Part shown: piece after piece, positions 8,010-51,267 of the stretch
Numbering within the stretch: position 1 is the first letter of the stretch
How the letters are laid out: each line of letters opens with the position of its first letter
From: Octopus vulgaris
Taxonomy: Eukaryota
DNA: 64,000 bases
Assembly: GCA_951406725.2 (NCBI GenBank)
Contig: OX597819.1
Location: 100,130,001 to 100,194,000 of the forward strand
Direction of reading: 5' to 3'
The notes under the pieces: model-generated
Databases searched by the model: none
Seen by the model: only the letters and a program-made list of their open reading frames with translations
What the model was told of the DNA's origin: nothing
Program-made: the position numbers and the translations under genes

Positions 8010-9180
8010 TTTGAGTTTCTTTGAGAAAGTTCGAGCCGGTTGCTAACAAAGTAATAACACTTCTTGAGCTAAGAGAGTCCCCGGTGTTTGTAAATATGTG
8101 GTCGATTTTGTGTGCTGGTTGAACTGTCGATACACACAGCCCAGTGTGCGCGTCTATTCAGATAAACATTTTTGAAATGTCTAACAAACCTTCACTAATA
8201 GATTGGATTTGAAGAATCCACCTGCTTCTATTGCCCCTTTTTAATGAGCATTTTTAGGTTTTGTGCAAATTTGTTAGTACATAACCTACTGCAGCTATGA
8301 TGATAGGTACATATGAGAATTCATAGTCAGGGCTACAAGACCTATCAATTCCGTATTAATTCGTCATAAATGTACTCTTTTCCCTGGTCTGTTGATTGTA
8401 CATTCACATCTACTGGGTAGCTGACCGCCACCACAGAACAATATCAGGTTTGCTCTGTTTGTACCGAATTGATGTTTTTATTAGGGTGTTCCACCAGCAT
8501 TCTTTGTTTTTAAAGGAGTGAATACCTGCTGGTTCTGACATACCTTCGATGTTTGCGTCTGAGTAGACTTTCTTGAGGATAGCAATATAAATATTCTTTG
8601 CAACTATATCATGCCTAATGGGCAGGTAATATCTCGAAGACACATTGGGGTATCTGTTGATGATGAAAGCAATATCTTCCACACTGGTATAAGAGAGCCG
8701 AAATTTTTTTATCACGTAGAGGTTTGATTGTATCTTTGTCCCTGTTATTCATCAGGTATCTCGTAGCTATTCCTATTCTTGAATAGCAGGGCATATCCTT
8801 CTAGGTGTGATGTATCTACTCTTCGTTTCAATGCTGCTGTTGCCCTTTAACTTACAGTAAGTGTACCCAAGAATTGCTTTTTGTTGGTATGATGCCTGCT
8901 TCTCCTTTAAGCTTCTGTTTAAGTAGGCCAGCTCAGCCTCCTTAGGATCACATAAAACACTTGTATTCTCAGGTACCCGCTCTCCTCCACCTGTGAAGAT
9001 ATTGTTGCTCTTACTTTTGATAATGCAGGGAATGTACTAATTTCTTTCTTTAGGTGTTGTCTACGTGAATCAAGATACAAAATATATTTTGTATCTTTTC
9101 ATTTGTCTTGCTCGCTTATGATCTGGCGTTTGCTGAATTTTCTTGAGAACAATCTTTTCTTAGTAGTAAGACGCTAGGGG
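8010..9180 (-). mobile_element. Decayed non-LTR retrotransposon with restriction-like endonuclease (R4/Dong-like)
   Basis: ORF 8410-8715 has RHDIVAKNIY, WWNT and KPDIVLW, the RHD and PD motifs of RLE-type LINEs. Confidence 0.8.
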
Positions 9181-9223
9181 TCTACCTCTAGCATAATGGA
9201 TGTCCACTTAGTTCTCAATCCCT

Positions 9224-9294
<71 letters not shown>

Positions 9295-9319
9295 TTTATT
9301 TTAAGCAGCAGAAAATTCA

Positions 9320-9371
9320 ACAAAATCTGTTACTCTGAGTTTCTCGTTGCCGTTCATCAGACAGTTTTTGC
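9320..9371 (-). ncRNA. Minimal type I hammerhead ribozyme motif (PLE-1, sense copy)
   Basis: Reverse complement reads CUGU-CUGAUGA-A-CG(GCAA)CG-A-GAAA-CUCAGAG-UA-ACAG. Confidence 0.8.
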
Positions 9372-10387
9372 TAGAATGGAACATATATATTAATTCAATC
9401 TATACTCTTACAAACGCTACACCTTTAAAAAGAAATGGACTTGTTTGATTGGCCCTTTAGAAAAAACGGTCAATCTTCGAGCGATAAACAAAAAGGTCAA
9501 AAATATATGTATATATATATAAAAACTTATAAAATTATAAAATCCGAGGAAAAAACCGAGGAAAAAACCTATTGCCGTTAATGAAGACAGTACAAATTAA
9601 TGCATAGAAATTAAACCTGCTATAAATACTGCAATACATATTTATATTAAAATCCACATATATATATCAACATACACAAAAGGATGCGCGTAAATGCCAT
9701 ACATACATATACAGACGTATGAATATGAATCTAAATTATACACATAAAAGCATGTGTACATATATTCACGCAAACCGTCTCGCACGCAAGCTAAAATTCA
9801 TCTATGTAGCAATTCTCATATACTGAGCAAGGAGGGGGAACGAAAGAAAGGGAAAGAGAGAAAAAAGAAACGAAGGAGGGGTGGGGAAAACTTGTAGCGA
9901 TATTATTGACATCTATAGAGGCCAGTATACATACACAAGTTCGAATTGATACATATACATACCGTCGTGTGTATGTGTGCTTAAGCACACGCATACTTTC
10001 ACTTACACATACACAGATACGCATGCTTACAAATATATATGCTTTGCTATATACAAACTTATATAAACATTCTAAATTTGACAACATTGCTTTTTTTAAA
10101 AAAAACATTGCTTTTAAAAAATGGGTGCATTAATAAAAATATATACGAAAGACATATAAAATAAAATATAACATCCTATTTTGGGTCATTTATAAATAAT
10201 CAAGGTAATATAAATAATCAAGGTAATCTTATGCAATACAATAACATGAAAACAAAGTTTGTAGGTTTTTCCTAATATATATGTAGAAACAATAAGACTT
10301 TGCTATAGTTCCGTCGTAGCGCTCAAGAGTCAAAATCAAAATCAAAAAATCAAAATACAAAATATATACTCTATCCATATGGTATAT

Positions 10388-11047
10388 TTATATTCGACAT
10401 TTAAATTTAGCCGTGTGCCTACATAAGTTCATTAATTCACTTCTTTGATTCAAAGAATTATTGTCTTTGAATAATATATGCATTTTTTCTAATAAGCAGA
10501 GCCTGCACTTGAAATTATATTTGTAAGCTCCATGCCTGTATGGTGCCGCCCTGTCCAGAATGCTCCATGTCACGTTGAAAGGTGGGGCTTCCTTTTCTTT
10601 TAGTTCCCAGACATATTTTGCTAGGCTGGTTTTCTTTCTGTTCTCTGGGTATTTAAAAGAATTCTTATGAGAATAAAATCTTGTTTTAAATGAATTTTCT
10701 GAAGCCCCTGTGTATGTCTTGTATTCCGATGAGCCTTCCACTTGCACCTTGGCTCTATAAACTACTCCTTTCACTAGACATTTCCCTTCTAACGGACAGG
10801 AGCTTTCGTTTTTGAAATTACATTTCTTAATGGGCTCGGCACCATGTCTAATCTCAATTAGCTTCCTATTATGTTGGCTAATGTAAGAGGCGAAATTTCT
10901 GCAACAAGAATAGCTAACCTTCAGGGTTCTTCTATTAAATATTCTGTAGAATTTATGACCCTGCCTAAAATGCTTAGAGACTAATCTCAAAAATTCTTTA
11001 CCTATATTAGTCTTTACGGCCAAATTGAAAGCCGGGTTGAACCACAA
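10388..11047 (-). pseudogene. PLE C-terminal linker plus GIY-YIG endonuclease (RT portion missing)
   Basis: WFNP, C..C-PLEGKC linker, GVVY...YTG, FKTRFYSH, CRLCLLEK, LNQRSE..CRH. Homologous to the C-terminus of 49323-50780. Confidence 0.9.
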
Positions 11048-12038
11048 AACTTTCCTGGAACTAGGACCAGGAAAGTTTTGACTCTTGAGCGCTACGACGG
11101 AACTATAGCAAAGTCTTATTGTTTCTACATATATATTAGGAAAAACCTACAAACTTTGTTTTCATGTTATTGTATTGCATAAGATTACCTTGATTATTTA
11201 TATTACCTTGATTATTTATAAATGACCCAAAATAGGATGTTATATTTTATTTTATATGTCTTTCGTATATATTTTTATTAATGCACCCATTTTTAAAAGC
11301 AATGTTTTTTTTAAAAAAAGCAATGTTGTCAAATTTAGAATGTTTATATAAGTTTGTATATAGCAAAGCATATATATTTGTAAGCATGCGTATCTGTGTA
11401 TGTGTAAGTGAAAGTATGCGTGTGCTTAAGCACACATACACACGACGGTATGTATATGTATCAATTCGAACTTGTGTATGTATACTGGCCTCTATAGATG
11501 TCAATAATATCGCTACAAGTTTTCCCCACCCCTCCTTCGTTTCTTTTTTCTCTCTTTCCCTTTCTTTCGTTCCCCCTCCTTGCTCAGTATATGAGAATTG
11601 CTACATAGATGAATTTTAGCTTGCGTGCGAGACGGTTTGCGTGAATATATGTACACATGCTTTTATGTGTATAATTTAGATTCATATTCATACGTCTGTA
11701 TATGTATGTATGGCGTTTACGCGCATCCTTTTGTGTATGTTGATATATATATGTGGATTTTAATATAAATATGTATTGCAGTATTTATAGCAGGTTTAAT
11801 TTCTATGCATTAATTTGTACTGTCTTCATTAACGGCAATAGGTTTTTTCCTCGGTTTTTTCCTCGGATTTTATAATTTTATAAGTTTTTATATATATATA
11901 CATATATTTTTGACCTTTTTGTTTATCGCTCGAAGATTGACCGTTTTTTCTAAAGGGCCAATCAAACAAGTCCATTTCTTTTTAAAGGTGTAGCGTTTGT
12001 AAGAGTATAGATTGAATTAATATATATGTTCCATTCTA

Positions 12039-12090
12039 GCAAAAACTGTCTGATGAACGGCAACGAGAAACTCAGAGTAACAGATTTTGT
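12039..12090 (+). ncRNA. Minimal type I hammerhead ribozyme motif (PLE-1, inverted copy)
   Basis: ctgt ctgatga a cggcaacg a gaaa ctcagag ta acag. Stem I ctgt/acag, GNRA-capped short stem II, palindromic stem III. Predicted cut after 12079. Confidence 0.8.
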
Positions 12091-12185
12091 TGAATTTTCT
12101 GCTGCTTAAAATAAAGCATATTACTCTACCACTGGTATTTGAGTACTCTTTTTTCCACCTTGTTTCACATTTATGTGTTTACTCC

Positions 12186-12540
<355 letters not shown>

Positions 12541-27257: not shown

Positions 27258-30165
<2,908 letters not shown>

Positions 30166-36544: not shown

Positions 36545-37435
36545 ATGTCCAGAACCTGGAAACGTGACGAACTGGCGTGGTTCCTGCGAGGATGGCAATG
36601 CGCTGACGGAGAAAATCCAAATAATATAATTACGGCCGCGCTGAAGAACAACGGATACAAAAGGACGTCAGCTCAAATAGAGCGGAAGAAGCAAGAATTT
36701 ATACGCTCCTACGCACTTGTCAGATCGCACATTAACACGCTGGATGCCATTTTTGACAGCGAAAAACGCGAACAAAGTAAAGATGGCAAGGATAGAGACG
36801 CGGGCGCTGATGAGGAGGGTCACCCCCACCTGGTAGACGCCCAGGAAGAAAACTCCTGTGAGAGGCCTGCCCGGAGATGAACCCAGGTGCGGATGCTCCT
36901 ACCAGCACCAAAAGCCATGGACATGGAGATGAAAAAACCAAAAAAGGAAGAAAAACTGAAGCTAAAACTCAGACAAAGCCAAGGGGCAAGGCAGCCAGGG
37001 ATAGAGGCAAACCTAACTATCCATATGCCAAAAAGGATGGAAACAAGCAGCGCACACGGGTATATAAGTTCTACCTGAAAGGTGCCTGCCGGCATGGAGA
37101 GGAAGGTGCAGGCTGCCGCTTTGCACATCCGGGACCCTGCCACAGAAACCAACCACCGAAAGGAAATGGGATGGACCACGCATCACCTGCCCCAAAACGG
37201 AGGTACGCAGATGTGGTGCGTGCCACAAACCACCAACGTGTTGTTGAAAGGGAAGCTGCTGAGCAGGAATCTTTTTTTGTGCATGGCACAAAAGATTGTA
37301 CAGCAACTAACCTGGCTCCATCAGGCTCAGGCTCGCAGATGGAATTGCCCACAGTTCACGAGACAGCCACAGCAGATGGACCCAGGGTGGACACCACCGG
37401 CAACAGCATACACCTCACCTCGATGCTCCTACTGA
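36545..37435 (+). pseudogene. LINE ORF1 (frameshifted): Myb/SANT-like N-terminus plus CCCH-like zinc finger
   Basis: RTWKRDELAWFLRGW..IITAALKNNGYKRTSAQIERK resembles a trihelix/Myb-like domain. YKFYLKGACRHGEEGAGCRFAHP is CCCH-like with the first Cys replaced. Confidence 0.6.
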
Positions 37436-40382
37436 ACATCAGAGGACTACTAACACACAGTAACAGGACAAAAGTCCCGTTCCTGAGAGACTTTGCCGCA
37501 TGCAATCAAGCCTTATGCATAGCACTCACAGAAACGCATCTGAAACCGGACATAGCAGATGCGGAATTACACATACCACAGTATGTTGTACTACGGACCG
37601 ACAGAAAAGAAAGGAGTCATGGAGGAGTTGCTATGTACATCCGTGGGGACCTCACACCCCAGGTCCTTTTGTCATACTCAAACTCGGTGTGTGACACACT
37701 AATTGTACACATAAGGCAACTTGATGTAGTTGTGTGTGCTACATATCGCCCTCCAGATGCCCCAAGTCATATGGGCAAGTTTGAGGACTGCCTTTTAAAA
37801 ATAGAAGAAGTTCTAATCACATTAGAACAACACATAAGTGTACTTCTTATGGGAGATTTCAATCTACCCAATGTCAGATGGCCCGAGGGCCTTCCTCTCT
37901 CAGGAATGACAAGATGTGAACGAGGACAGGCGAGGTCCCTCCTGAACCTCATCAACACCCTATACATGGAGCAAGTAATACTCCAACCAACCAGAGCAGG
38001 TAACACACTGGATCTCTGCTTCACAAATAATATGGATCTCATCCATAATGTGAAAGTGACACCGACACTACTCTCGGATCACAACATGGTAGAGCTGACC
38101 ATGTACGGGCCAAAAGAGAGCACGGACATGCAGCCTACAAGAAACCCTCAGAATCTTTCCAGCTTGAACTTCAATAAGGCAAACTGGAAACAAACTGAGA
38201 AAGAGATCCTCAAACAAAACTGACCTGAATGTCTCTCCTCGCCGGACATCGACATGATACTTCAACAATTCATGTCTGTAATGCAAGCCATATGCTACAA
38301 ATGTGTCCCAGAGAGAAAGGCCTCTGTACACAAGAACAAAATCCCCAGAGAGAGGAAAATTTTAATGAGACGGCGTACAAAAATTTCAAATCGCCTAAAC
38401 AAACAAATTGAAAGCAGTGAAAAGTCCCGCCTGAAAATAAAACTGTTGGAAATTGAAAATTGTCTGCAACTCTCCCATGAGAAGGAAAGAGCAGACAAAG
38501 AAGCCTGGCTATAGACAACATAAAAACTAACCCCAGAGCTTTCTACAGGTATGCCAAAGAAGCAGCTACGGTGCACTGTAGGATAGGGCCACTCCTTGAA
38601 AAGGATGGCACACTCACAGGAAAACCAATGAGGGTAAGTGAAATACTGAATGAACAATTCAAGAGTGTTTTCACTCCACCCCTTGGGCATTTCCAAATCA
38701 GCAATCCAACTGACTTCTTTACCACTGCAGATATAGAATCAGAAGCGGCGACGATAAATTACATCGATATAAAGGAAGACGATGTAATAAAGGCTATAGA
38801 TGAAATGAAAACAGACTCAGCTATTGGCCCCGATGGATTCCCGGCAATCCTCCTAAAAGTATGTAAGAGAGTCCTAGCAAGATCACTGCAGTTCCTCTTT
38901 CAGAGCTTCCTTGCAGCAGGCAAACTTCCAAGAAAACTGAAGGAAGGTAAAATATGCCCTATACATAAAGGAGGTAGCAGAGCGGAGGCCAAGAACTACA
39001 GACCTATCTCTCTGACCTCACACATCAGCAAGGTCATGGAACGAATAGTCAGAAGGAAACTAATCACCTTCCTTGAAGAAAATGACTTGCTGCCTGACAC
39101 CCAACATGGTTTCCGACCAGGAAGAAGCTGCTTAACTCAGCTCCTGCAGCACTATGACTGGGTGCTGAAACAACTGCTCAACCACTCAAATGTGGAAGTC
39201 ATTTATCTCGACTTCGCAAAGGCCTTCGATAAAGTCGATCATGGAATGATATGTCACAAGCTGCGTGATCTTGGCATAGTTGGAAAACTAGGAGAATGGC
39301 TTCATGACTTTCTGAAGAATAGAAGTCAGGTGGTAGCAGCCAATGAGGCCACTTCCATTAGCACGCAAATAGTGAGCGGTGTTCCGCAGGGCACTGTTTT
39401 GGGACCACTACTGTTCATAATGGCCCTCTCAGACATGCCCTCAGCCACGCAGAGAGCCACGATCACAAGTTATGCAGATGATACAAAAGTTTCACAGGCA
39501 ATACAGAACCCTGAAGACACTAAGCACCTGCAATGTGAGCTGGACGAAATATACAAGTGGGCTGAAAAGAATAGCATGCAGTTCAATGCTGAAAAGTTTC
39601 AAGCTTTATACTATCAGCATGCAAAACTGAATGCAATACCCAATGAATACACTGGACCCGGAGGGATTGCAATCCCAGAGGCACAATCAGTGCGTGACCT
39701 GGGTATTCACATGAGTGATGACGCGACCTTTCATGTACATGTTGCTAAACTGACAATGAAATGTAGACGGCTGGCTGGATGGATTCTTAGAACCGTTAGA
39801 ACAAGAGAACAAGAAACCATGATGGTCTTCTGGAAGACACTTGTCCTAAGCCACTTTGACTATTGCTCTCAGCTATGGTCACCATCCAGTGTCAAGTTGA
39901 TCACAGAAATTGAGGCGATCCAACGAAGCTACACGAAGAAGATAGCCTCTGTGAAGCATATGAGCTACTGGGAGAGACTCAAGAGATTAAAGCTCTATTC
40001 CCTGGAGCGTAGGCGAGAAAGATATGCCATAATATATATCTGGAAGATCCTGGAAGGTCTTGTCCCAGACTTTGGCATCGAGAGTCACACAAATGCCAGA
40101 ACCGGACGCCACTGCGTAGTACCAAGGACTCCAAATTTGCCATCAAGATGTAGGACAATATATTGTGATAGCCTGGGCTTCAGAGGCCCACGGCTCTTCA
40201 ATATCCTCCCGAAGAACCTGAGGGACCTGCATGGTGTAGATGCGGATGTCTTTAAAGTAAGACTGGATCTCTTCCTGTCAGGTGTCCCGGATGAACCAAC
40301 TTCACGGCAGGAGGTGCAGATGAGGGCAGCTGCATCGAACTCTCTCATGCATCAGATGGCGTTTGCTAAAAAGCATCCGTGA
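37339..40382 (+). pseudogene. LINE ORF2 (endonuclease and reverse transcriptase), one stop and one frameshift
   Basis: Pieces 36877-38223, 38254-38514 and 38571-40382 join into a canonical ORF2. Confidence 0.9.
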
Positions 40383-46013: not shown

Positions 46014-46044
<31 letters not shown>

Positions 46045-46142
46045 TGATAAAACGGTAAGATAACAAAAGAAAGAAAGAGACCTCAATATTATGTAAATAG
46101 AGGAAATTTATCTATACAATATGTTACATTACTCGGTAGTCA

Positions 46143-46205
46143 AGATAAAACTCTGAGTTTCAGATGCCGAAGTGGAAATCCACAACACCATCTCTTCGGT
46201 TATCT
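46143..46205 (-). ncRNA. Hammerhead-like motif, PLE-2 inverted copy
   Basis: Reverse complement of 50976-51038. Confidence 0.65.
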
Positions 46206-46400
46206 GGCTATTTGAAAACGTTATGAAAAAATACCGTTAAAAATGAAGGGAAATTACTCTGTTATAACTCTGCTTTGCCTGCGTACTTATACATCGCTCG
46301 CATTTTTCGTCATAAAAATTATATAAAAATACATAAAAAATATATAAAAATATATAAAAATATATAAAATCTTCTTGGGACATAACACAGAAAGCATGTT

Positions 46401-48390
46401 CTATCCGTTTTCTTTAGGGGACCAAAAACGTAACAGAAATTTAGTCACATGTGGGCATGATCCGAAAAGTTCTGTCCTTGTATTTAGACATGTGGTAGGG
46501 TCTAAGCTGCTTTTCCAGATAAGCCATCTCTCCATGTCGCATAAACCGCACCTTCCGCTGCCGTTAGTATAGGGCTTACATCTGGCCAAAATCTTCCATT
46601 GTATGTTATAATCGACACCTTTATCTCTTAAAGACCAAATATGATTGGATAATTGTGTCGCTTTTCTTTTGTTCCAGTGCCTAAAGCTCAAAGTGTGGTT
46701 ATTGAACCTGGCCTTGAAATTACCCTCTGTCAGGCCCACGTATTTCTTCGTCAAAACGGTGTCTTTAGTGGTTATAGAGTTTACGGTAGCCTCATATATG
46801 ATGGTCTTGGACATGCAAGCTCCATTTAGCGGGCACAATTCTTTATTCCTGCATGAACAGCTGTTTTCTTCTTGTGTTTTTTGTATGTTATGATTGATTA
46901 TGTTTTTAAAATTGGTAGTTGAACTAAAACTAATTTTTAAATTGTGTCTATTGAAGAGTTTCCTATAAGCATGGTTAACTGGAAAATGTCTATCTATCAG
47001 TGCTAGGAAATATTTACCTATATTGAAGGCCACCTCGGGTGAGTAAGGGGGCGTAAACCAGATGACCTTCCTATTTCTATTATTCCTTTTCCTTATTGTT
47101 GGGCTGGTGATAGGTGTATATTTTATTTTTCGCTAAAACCACTATCTTTTAAAGCTTTATTATAAACTGGGGCAACGCTATTGAAGATGTCCTCATTAGA
47201 TGAGAGGCTAGAAATCCTCTTACTAATATTTTTAACTAAATTTTTGAATACTATAGGGGGATGGCATGAACCTACATTAATATAACTTAGTCTATCATTG
47301 GGCTTCCTATAAGGCTTATAAATATTATTATTAAGATCTAAGGAAACGTCTAAGAAATTGACAACCGTCAGGTTAGTGTCTATAGTTATACTAAGTCCGA
47401 AGTGTTTCATTAACTGGATAATATCCTTCCTAAAACGATCTTGTGCTGGTCCATTTGTATTAGCTGTTAAGGCGAGGGCATCATCTTTGTAGATGGCGAA
47501 ATGTACGTTAGGGAATGTCTTACTGAAGGTATCTAGGAGAAAGAGTCCAATTAGATCACAGATGCCTGCCCCATCATATGAACCCATGCTCACATCGAAA
47601 GCGCCCTCCGTGTCGGTGTTTTTTACCCACTTTGCATTCTCACTGAAAAGTAATGTCTTTCTAGCATGGAAGATTATATCCTTATCATTGGTACTAATTT
47701 CTATGAAGTCACTAGCGAAGATTAGGGCTTTATCTAGCAGTTCTTTAGAGATAGAGGCATAAAAATCAACAATATCGAATTGTGTAAACCTCGCTTTTTT
47801 CTTATTCTTAATAGCTTTAAACCAGTCTACGACTTCTATACTATTGGACCATTGCACTAGCCTAGTATCGGTCTTAATTTTCGTATTTATTTTATCTAAA
47901 ATTTCTTTGCTAATAATCCCTAGTTCTGACTTGGCTGGGTTGATAAGCCTACATTTAGGATTGGAAAGGAAGTTTTCTTTGTGGTCTTTAATAGTAATAA
48001 AGGCCTCTTTTTGGGGAGGGTTTCTATTTTTTTATCTAATTTAAGTTTAGCGGCGATGACGCTAGCTTCTTTATTAATTTCGTTATATGTCTGTGCCCTA
48101 GCTTTAGTATAATTATTAATGATGCTGTTGTGTAAGAGTTGTGTGTATTTGCTGTTATCTACCAGGTATAAGTTCTTGGTTTTATCCGAAAAAAGTGCTT
48201 TTTTCTTGGAGCTTTTTATATGATCAATATCTTTCTTCAATTTATGTTGGAAATTGTTAAAAGACTTACGAAACTTTATTTTGCTCATGATCTTCAGCAG
48301 GTCCGCTTCGAAATCTTCCAAGCCTTTAATCCTAGGAGGGAATTTTTTGGATTTTATCCGATAGCAAATGTTTTCCTTGGTGTTCGCTTC
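46401..48390 (-). pseudogene. Inverted, 5'-truncated copy of the PLE-2 RT/GIY-YIG ORF
   Basis: ORFs 47920-48420, 47123-47857 and 46401-47033 translate identically to the plus copy. One extra frameshift near 47126. Confidence 0.9.
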
Positions 48391-48449
48391 AACCGAAGAG
48401 ATGGTGTTGTGGATTTCCACTTCGGCATCTGAAACTCAGAGTTTTATCT
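48391..48449 (+). ncRNA. Hammerhead-like motif lacking most of the 5' strand of stem I (at the inversion junction)
   Basis: aa ccgaaga gatg..catc t gaaa ctcagag tt ttatct starts exactly at the junction. Confidence 0.55.
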
Positions 48450-48654
48450 TGACTACCGAGTAATGTAACATATTGTATAGATAAATTTCCTCTATTTACA
48501 TAATATTGAGGTCTCTTTCTTTCTTTTGTTATCTTACCGTTTTATCAATAAATCACCTCCCGGACGACGTTATTCTCAACTAAGAGCTAATACGACCTTT
48601 TTGGGATTATCGCCTAACATCGGTTGAGGACTCTCACAAACAAAAGAATCTAAT

Positions 48655-50780
48655 ATGGACGCATATCACATAGATTATTCTATGAAAAATATACCGATCC
48701 CATCAAAGGATTTTTACTCTAAGAAACTTCTGCAAAAAATTACTGATGTAATTAAGCGTATGAGATGGAAGGCTTTCTTTTTTGACACAGAAGCGAACAC
48801 CAAGGAAAACATTTGCTATCGGATAAAATCCAAAAAATTCCCTCCTAGGATTAAAGGCTTGGAAGATTTCGAAGCGGACCTGCTGAAGATCATGAGCAAA
48901 ATAAAGTTTCGTAAGTCTTTTAACAATTTCCAACATAAATTGAAGAAAGATATTGATCATATAAAAAGCTCCAAGAAAAAAGCACTTTTTTCGGATAAAA
49001 CCAAGAACTTATACCTGGTAGATAACAGCAAATACACACAACTCTTACACAACAGCATCATTAATAATTATACTAAAGCTAGGGCACAGACATATAACGA
49101 AATTAATAAAGAAGCTAGCGTCATCGCCGCTAAACTTAAATTAGATAAAAAAATAGAAACCCTCCCCAAAAAGAGGCCTTTATTACTATTAAAGACCACA
49201 AAGAAAACTTCCTTTCCAATCCTAAATGTAGGCTTATCAACCCAGCCAAGTCAGAACTAGGGATTATTAGCAAAGAAATTTTAGATAAAATAAATACGAA
49301 AATTAAGACCGATACTAGGCTAGTGCAATGGTCCAATAGTATAGAAGTCGTAGACTGGTTTAAAGCTATTAAGAATAAGAAAAAAGCGAGGTTTACACAA
49401 TTCGATATTGTTGATTTTTATGCCTCTATCTCTAAAGAACTGCTAGATAAAGCCCTAATCTTCGCTAGTGACTTCATAGAAATTAGTACCAATGATAAGG
49501 ATATAATCTTCCATGCTAGAAAGACATTACTTTTCAGTGAGAATGCAAAGTGGGTAAAAAACACCGACACGGAGGGCGCTTTCGATGTGAGCATGGGTTC
49601 ATATGATGGGGCAGGCATCTGTGATCTAATTGGACTCTTTCTCCTAGATACCTTCAGTAAGACATTCCCTAACGTACATTTCGCCATCTACAAAGATGAT
49701 GCCCTCGCCTTAACAGCTAATACAAATGGACCAGCACAAGATCGTTTTAGGAAGGATATTATCCAGTTAATGAAACACTTCGGACTTAGTATAACTATAG
49801 ACACTAACCTGACGGTTGTCAATTTCTTAGACGTTTCCTTAGATCTTAATAATAATATTTATAAGCCTTATAGGAAGCCCAATGATAGACTAAGTTATAT
49901 TAATGTAGGTTCATGCCATCCCCCTATAGTATTCAAAAATTTAGTTAAAAATATTAGTAAGAGGATTTCTAGCCTCTCATCTAATGAGGACATCTTCAAT
50001 AGCGTTGCCCCAGTTTATAATAAAGCTTTAAAAGATAGTGGTTTTAGCGAAAAAATAAAATATACACCTATCACCAGCCCAACAATAAGGAAAAGGAATA
50101 ATAGAAATAGGAAGGTCATCTGGTTTACGCCCCCTTACTCACCCGAGGTGGCCTTCAATATAGGTAAATATTTCCTAGCACTGATAGATAGACATTTTCC
50201 AGTTAACCATGCTTATAGGAAACTCTTCAATAGACACAATTTAAAAATTAGTTTTAGTTCAACTACCAATTTTAAAAACATAATCAATCATAACATACAA
50301 AAAACACAAGAAGAAAACAGCTGTTCATGCAGGAATAAAGAATTGTGCCCGCTAAATGGAGCTTGCATGTCCAAGACCATCATATATGAGGCTACCGTAA
50401 ACTCTATAACCACTAAAGACACCGTTTTGACGAAGAAATACGTGGGCCTGACAGAGGGTAATTTCAAGGCCAGGTTCAATAACCACACTTTGAGCTTTAG
50501 GCACTGGAACAAAAGAAAAGCGACACAATTATCCAATCATATTTGGTCTTTAAGAGATAAAGGTGTCGATTATAACATACAATGGAAGATTTTGGCCAGA
50601 TGTAAGCCCTATACTAACGGCAGCGGAAGGTGCGGTTTATGCGACATGGAGAGATGGCTTATCTGGAAAAGCAGCTTAGACCCTACCACATGTCTAAATA
50701 CAAGGACAGAACTTTTCGGATCATGCCCACATGTGACTAAATTTCTGTTACGTTTTTGGTCCCCTAAAGAAAACGGATAG
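48655..50780 (+). CDS. PLE polyprotein: reverse transcriptase plus C-terminal GIY-YIG endonuclease (one frameshift near 49170)
   Basis: YSMKNIPIPS, KRMRWKA, FDIVDFYASI, SMGSYDG, YKDD, NFLDV, WFTPPYS, CSCR..CPLNGAC, IIY..YVG, CGLC, LNTRTE..CPH. Restoring one A gives KKEAFITIKDHKENF. Possibly Nematis-type (from memory, not tested). Confidence 0.9.
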
Positions 50781-50975
50781 AACATGCTTTCTGTGTTATG
50801 TCCCAAGAAGATTTTATATATTTTTATATATTTTTATATATTTTTTATGTATTTTTATATAATTTTTATGACGAAAAATGCGAGCGATGTATAAGTACGC
50901 AGGCAAAGCAGAGTTATAACAGAGTAATTTCCCTTCATTTTTAACGGTATTTTTTCATAACGTTTTCAAATAGCC

Positions 50976-51038
50976 AGATAACCGAAGAGATGGTGTTGTG
51001 GATTTCCACTTCGGCATCTGAAACTCAGAGTTTTATCT
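50976..51038 (+). ncRNA. Hammerhead-like motif (variant core CCGAAGA, extended stem II)
   Basis: agataa ccgaaga gatg-gtgtt-gtgga tt tccac-ttcgg-catc t gaaa ctcagag tt ttatct. Stem I is agataa/ttatct and stem III is the same as in PLE-1. Predicted cut after 51032. Confidence 0.65.
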
Positions 51039-51267
51039 TGACTACCGAGTAATGTAACATATTGTATAGATATATATATATATATATATATATAAATATA
51101 TACATGTATGTATGCATATATATCCACACAGTTGATAAACTGTACTACAGAGCATAAGGTTATTCACACACACACACCACACACGCACTCACACACATAC
51201 ATATATATATACATACATATATACATATATATACATATATATATACATATATACATGTTTATATACA

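Follow-up and report, generated by a model that had tools for sequence, protein, structure and literature searches.

How does a Penelope-like element (PLE) come to lie head-to-head with a second truncated copy of itself, and what does a short perfect hairpin at the point of inversion reveal about the steps that joined the two? The question is raised by a locus in the 64,000-nt stretch of Octopus vulgaris DNA analysed here (the window). The original prediction for this locus held that a nascent cDNA had folded back on itself and then jumped to the 3' UTR, leaving a template-switch footprint that would show how PLE inversions form.

A Hydra-type element inverted in a (TA)n tract

The insertion is sited in a (TA)n tract, with (TA)n on both flanks and its two arms head-to-head. 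At the left part of the target site (9232..9293) begins the left arm, a 5'-truncated PLE copy on the minus strand (9289..11058) that comprises the endonuclease (EN) coding region from the basic linker onwards, a 3' UTR of ~1.1 kb and a hammerhead core. The right arm (11076..12121, plus strand) is sense 3' UTR; it is followed by a 65-nt tail present at the right end only (12122..12186, plus strand) and by a (TA)n-rich tract that forms the right part of the target site (12188..12311). Three differences separate the arms over 1046-1047 nt: an internal substitution at a CpG site, a terminal substitution located at the outer junction, and a homopolymer indel for which the family is polymorphic. Compared with contigs of other copies, the window base was common to both arms at 23/23 variable positions checked, and at 11358, 11374, 11468, 11501 and 11790 the base in both arms is the minority base in three large runs. 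Because the arms share source-copy variants and differ so little, we conclude that both came from one source copy and that the insertion is young.

The outer ends of the arms are also characteristic of the family. Among the contig ends listed, family copies stop at two sites and give way to (TA)n at both: 28 contigs in run X1 and 76 in X16 stop behind 12121, and 32 in X1 stop behind ~12184. The left arm ends, without a tail, at the first or inner of these standard positions, and the right arm reaches the second or outer one, 65 nt further. Taken together with the two RT start sites described in vitro for another PLE, the two standard outer ends suggest two target-primed cDNAs, a reading that they fit without proving. 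In the passages of PMC8557442 compared, such a tail is ascribed to endonuclease resolution of an intermediate and not to two primings.

We classified the element as a Hydra-type PLE. The EN-domain reading frame (10391..11056, minus strand; RKVLWFNP ... CRLC ... E ... N ... CRH) matches, at 59% identity, the C-terminus of the RT-EN protein P0001 (713 aa), whose N-terminal part contains an RT core (YRDD). A C-terminal GIY-YIG endonuclease behind the RT is thus predicted by homology to P0001, since Pfam gave no match for the EN fragment itself. In an alignment of four EN sequences, C187, C190, E193, N206, C215 and H217 were invariant. The linker motif reads C-N-F-x5-C in the window copy, versus CxCX5C in P0001 and in a second PLE of the window. 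P0001 carries the RT motifs RWR and DKT and the second PLE carries RWK and DKT; the RT region is absent from the junction copy. A canonical hammerhead ribozyme core (CTGATGA...GAAA) is predicted by pattern in both arms, at 12050-12070 on the plus strand and 9360-9340 on the minus strand, with no Rfam call and a folding z of only -0.9. Insertion into (TA)n agrees with the Hydra clade. We use the wording 'Hydra-type', which the element fits, rather than proven membership of the clade, because the RT motifs are absent from this copy and Phe takes the place of the second linker Cys.

Protein searches did not recover a member of the element's own family: the best match reached 59% in one search (four long matches of 310 candidates) and 46% in another (24 matches of 190 candidates). 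A metagenome scan gave two distant loci (41-42%) and a viral-contig scan none. The sole Rfam matches were (TA)n-driven miRNA ones below the gathering threshold and a weak hammerhead match that lies outside the element. The latter is an HH9 match on the plus strand at 12440-12504 (22.8 bits, E 0.028, below gathering), to the right of the (TA)n tract, and is possibly the end of a third PLE.

Other mobile elements are found in the window. A second Hydra-type PLE, of another family, occupies 46039-51075 and is likewise head-to-head; its layout is that of the junction element with the tail on the opposite side. Its arms (2285 and 2286 nt) differ by one substitution and one indel, its tail of 67 nt lies at the left end, its ORF is frameshifted near 49150-49260, and its hammerhead-like core reads CCGAAGA, not CTGANGA, in all three copies. 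The junction of this second element is blunt, with a 399-nt spacer that contains a 163-nt pseudo-LTR piece and the start of the ORF. The two tails, 65 nt (12122-12186) and 67 nt (46039-46105), are roughly double the length of 30-40 nt that the compared parts of PMC8557442 and PMC11167929 state for other PLE clades, and longer tails may be a trait of Hydra-type elements. On the minus strand at ~8300-9228, a broken frame with RHD...EP...KPDIVxW and no relevant Pfam match ends at the (TA)n tract of the junction element; we take its motif to resemble the end of a non-LTR element with a restriction-like endonuclease. The long frames at 36862-40382 (plus strand) and 27689-29802 (minus strand) presumably represent endonuclease- or RT-like sequence of other LINE-type elements.

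The junction hairpin and the polarity of its loop

The junction itself (11045-11080) is a perfect hairpin, as had been seen at the outset. Its left arm (11045..11058, plus strand), which constitutes the final 14 nt of the left, antisense copy, is the exact reverse complement of 11067-11080, leaving a loop of 8 nt (11059..11066, plus strand); the 14-bp stem extends neither outward nor inward. Of 691 stems of at least 12 bp in the 64-kb window, three remained after low-complexity filtering, and the junction hairpin was the sole perfect stem of at least 14 bp among them. Dinucleotide shuffling of the 2833-nt element produced a 14-bp stem in 0/300 trials. Folded as single-stranded DNA, the hairpin has an energy of -14.7 kcal/mol (z -6.4), and none of 200 shuffles was equally good. 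We regard the hairpin as a by-product in a dead, truncated copy, itself without function, and a host function of the junction is not likely.

The last five nucleotides of the hairpin, TTTTG (11076-11080, plus strand), also begin the long inverted arm at 11076-12121, and this shared stretch is exactly 5 nt. The predicted jump of ~700 nt through TTTTG was borne out as a skip of 714 nt; microhomology of at least 5 nt occurred in 1050/99,951 random long deletions of the element. Five TTTTG copies crowd into 32 nt at the landing site, and the skip lands on the last of them. Splicing was rejected as the origin of the skip upon inspection of the sequence contexts, as no placement inside the 5-nt microhomology gives GT..AG ends.

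What the hairpin records depends upon the strand from which its loop was copied, and we inferred the parent sequence from contigs of four public runs (of 24 listed) aligned to 10336-12186. Among the 24 rows of loose contig ends listed, of 662, contigs that ceased to match behind 11056/11058 continued with TCCTAGTTCT (three contigs in X16, two plus three in X13). This continuation begins with the exact reverse complement of the window loop, in eight contigs from two of the four runs; the chance of such an 8-mer match is 1.6e-5. Contigs that stopped before 11076 went on with the TTTTGA repeats of the UTR, and contig 17 of X15 keeps a single orientation as it passes from the EN region into the 3' UTR. 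The loose ends of X15 were excluded as junction evidence, and contig 17 alone was used from that run, because it lacks a palindromic stretch that recurs at several unrelated places in X15 and that we take to be a library linker. Since the parent contigs run past 11058 into the upstream ORF, and from EN into UTR one way, the intact element has no hairpin at this position; its absence from contigs of other family copies agrees with what had been expected.

On this contig evidence, the loop is sense parent sequence from directly upstream of the left arm's truncation point, and it belongs to an uninterrupted 23-nt piece of sense ORF-linker sequence, 11058..11080 (plus strand; T-R-T-R-K-V-L). The piece begins at a parent position 9 nt upstream of the left-arm terminus, has 1 nt (G11058) in common with the left arm, and has 5 nt (TTTTG) in common with the right arm. 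Homologous proteins point the same way: the sense reading, TRTRKVL, places Arg where 19/21 homologues have Arg, whereas the reading expected from a top-strand fold-back, PSSRKVL, places Ser there, as do 0/21. Neither reading fits at the adjacent column (Thr 0/21, Ser 1/21). This comparison covered 21 of 28 proteins, the other seven being omitted as they lack the motif. The parent bases of the loop occur nowhere else in the window, and no 8-nt micro-inversion of the source copy at the loop was present in the eight contigs.

Loop polarity divides the original prediction. A two-step junction stands. The proposed first step, a fold-back of the nascent top-strand cDNA with self-copying of 14 nt, is contradicted by the sense loop of the eight contigs and by the conserved Arg. 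The 8-9 bases concerned lie past the terminus of the left arm as retained, so that arm could not have been their template; and since the top-strand cDNA ends at 11058 without the loop bases, the proposed order of events does not hold. A snap-back would be possible on the bottom strand only.

Routes to the junction

Junctions of other family copies provide a context in which to weigh the remaining explanations. The contigs yielded 19 joints, of which 15 were listed, with one further joint omitted at a repeat. The 15 comprise six head-to-head inversions, eight within-arm skips of 32-87 nt, and one joint between opposite strands whose ends are 65 nt apart. Each of the six inversions was found in one run, at a depth of 31-49; their arm ends lie 346-1486 nt apart, a range that includes the 723-728 nt of the window junction, and they show either microhomology of 0-4 nt or fillers that are 1, 4 and 7 nt long. 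In three of the six, the letters between the arms are marked as not known. A short hairpin was present at 0/7 other junctions, these being the six listed family joints and the window's second PLE. The notion of a footprint showing how PLE inversions form in general consequently goes too far, as one junction is insufficient for it. Short-word contigs handle hairpins badly, and the six junctions are biased towards long spacers because straddling the window junction was needed for listing; we treat the survey as a lead and not as a result.

One of these joints may be a second case of a two-step junction. The 7-nt filler of joint 10532>11305 (X16) extends to a 10-nt sense match inside the joint's own gap; random 7-mers reached such a match in 198/20,000 trials inside the gap and in 791/20,000 anywhere in the element. 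This gives a weak hint that short hops recur. Joint 11554>11547 (X1 and X16), in the UTR of the family, carries a 26-nt insert that includes what looks like a duplication of 8 nt.

The explanation that we favour, at about even odds (a probability of roughly 0.5), is that the right-hand cDNA hopped upstream on the RNA, copied 23 nt that overlapped the left cDNA by 14 nt, and was then joined to it. The endonuclease would cut both strands of the (TA)n target, and each 3' end would prime RT, one at each start site. The bottom-strand cDNA would stall after ~1.1 kb in the TTTTG run; its CAAAA end would re-anneal to the TTTTG located 714 nt upstream on the RNA, and 18 more bases would be copied. The top-strand cDNA would pass the hop site by 14 nt and stop, comparable to the 'internal duplication' of L1 twin priming. 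Finally, the two 3' ends would be joined, either with 1 nt of microhomology or after the bottom strand had snapped back briefly and then paired with the top cDNA over 14 nt, and the gaps would be filled. The layout of the sequence is observed, and these steps, like those of the palindrome route below, are what we infer from it.

One chain of events would account for the microhomology of 5 nt, for the overlap of 14 nt and for the nearness of the piece to the end of the left arm. The polarity of the loop, the two standard ends, the spacer range of the six family junctions and the L1 precedent suggest the same course of events, and the filler of joint 10532>11305 is suggestive only. On the other side, this is one locus at which the order of events is unobservable, and a later deletion in one arm would yield an identical sequence; the join at the loop has just 1 nt of microhomology, and the junction of the window's second PLE is blunt and has no such piece. 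With both arms beginning close to the 3' end, the model further has to assume that a second RNA took part or that one RNA was used again.

A later deletion is the core of the principal alternative, which we consider a serious contender of appreciable, if minority, weight. The insertion would have been born as a near-perfect palindrome of 1.77 kb whose loop measured 8 nt, through fold-back of the bottom-strand cDNA or from two cDNAs stopping within 9 nt of each other. Subsequently, 714 nt of the right arm would have been lost between TTTTG copies, by slippage or by microhomology-mediated joining in fill-in or replication, and the 14-bp stem would be the surviving tip. On the bottom strand the loop is antisense, as a fold-back of that strand predicts; the TTTTG beside the loop is the first on that arm; and the arms' agreement with the window base at all 23 variable positions checked is in keeping with such an origin. 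Long palindromes are unstable, which also counts for this route. Both ingredients, PLE junction palindromes (read as self-priming) and microhomology-associated internal deletions, are described for Penelope copies in the parts of PMC3846280 compared. However, this route requires both a fold-back for which 1 nt served as primer and, as a separate event, a deletion that left the loop intact; its single-cDNA version leaves unexplained why the left end falls at a family-standard position; and the insertion is young, with one internal substitution in 1046 nt. Moreover, the listed within-arm deletions are all shorter than 90 nt, and the near-symmetric joint between opposite strands makes up one of the 15 listed.

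Host repair is improbable as the source of the 23-nt piece. Polymerase-theta-type end joining makes short templated inserts; here it would have joined two asymmetric cDNA ends and copied 23 nt from the element near its left end, and both the length of the piece and the 5-nt microhomology fit, as do the short fillers at 3/6 other junctions. Nevertheless, a sense template, be it RNA or a second strand, that reaches 9 nt beyond the left arm is needed, and neither single-stranded cDNA end offers one, so that this explanation either collapses into the RNA hop or needs extra steps.

We hold an assembly or chimeric-read artefact to be very improbable. None of the 32 public-run contig pieces listed (there are 26,175 further) spans the window junction, and inverted PLE structures are hard to assemble according to the portions of PMC8557442 compared; but the arms differ at a CpG site and at a family-polymorphic indel, both ends are family-standard with a one-sided tail, the loop carries parent bases not otherwise present in the window, and other inversion junctions of the family occur in contigs at a depth of 31-49. 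The literal fold-back of the top strand, with a 14-nt self-copy and a jump to the 3' UTR, describes the stem correctly, together with the microhomology at TTTTG and the skip of 714 nt, and is hardly tenable, as the loop is sense parent sequence absent from the retained top-strand cDNA.

The favoured RNA hop could be extended to PLE inversions at large, a tentative step that we regard as rather doubtful: a dimeric enzyme would prime both target strands at the two sites that define the tail, and one cDNA would hop on the RNA to its partner's site, thereby building the head-to-head inversion. If this is true, the hairpins at PLE junctions would be twin-priming-like overlaps, not self-primed fold-backs, loop polarity would name the hopping strand, and the model of self-priming on antisense RNA would be replaced. 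Taken alone, the locus is one dead insertion at which the two remaining models are not separated. It is nonetheless more informative than most, as the orientation of its loop rules out one model, and this high-copy family offers many junctions for a survey that could discriminate between the others.

Comparison with known systems

In the parts of PMC8557442 compared, inverted truncated copies and one-sided tails are general features of PLEs, and the features behind the inverted copies are called undefined. The Hydra clade described there shares with the window element a C-terminal GIY-YIG-type EN with CxxC and CxH around a conserved E and N, a hammerhead core, insertion into (TA)n, an inverted 5'-truncated copy and a tail; the window copy differs in having no RT part and in its linker, which reads C-x-F-x5-C and not CxCX5C.

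Short palindromes at head-to-head PLE junctions are already published, and the window junction is a scar of that published type. The Adineta vaga elements Pen2, Pen2a and Pen3a have junction palindromes (a 15-bp overlap, 18 bp and 38 bp) that were read as self-priming in the sections of PMC3846280 compared. These Penelope copies, like ours, combine the head-to-head arrangement with a one-sided tail, a short junction palindrome and microhomology deletions. In A. vaga, however, the palindromes lie at the 5' end of the pseudo-LTR, whereas the window hairpin is situated in the ORF linker, with the 714-nt skip separating it from the long arms, and the reported tail is 30-40 nt, as opposed to 65 nt. 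Judged by titles and abstracts, in a literature coverage largely exclusive of subscription papers, we found no report of PLE junction fillers or of twin priming or 5' switching in PLEs.

Biochemical work on Poseidon PAc provides the closest view of the priming steps. In vitro, both strands were cut and extended, a dimer was predicted, and two RT start sites delimited the tail, according to the passages of PMC11167929 compared, in which later steps of the reaction are left unvalidated. The two start sites resemble the two standard ends of the window family; PAc belongs to another clade, and the joining of two cDNAs is outside the passages compared.

L1 offers the nearest parallel for that joining. 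In the portions of 10.1101/2024.08.27.596794 compared, an overlap duplication was present in 283/1,703 inverted L1 insertions (median 22 bp), and in 20 inverted insertions the second cDNA had transferred to upstream RNA. L1 primers act at the poly(A) tail and internally on one RNA, and the L1 arms are not duplicated; in contrast, the junction element has two arms that each begin close to the 3' end, so that 1046 nt are present twice, and the RT and endonuclease are different ones. By analogy, the window junction would resemble twin priming at most, and not its L1 form. The likeness would extend to two cDNAs from the target ends joined by microcomplementarity, and it takes in a short overlap at the inversion point (14 bp in the window, against the L1 median of 22 bp) and a segment of upstream origin that ends the second cDNA, represented in the window by the 23-nt piece from 714 nt upstream.
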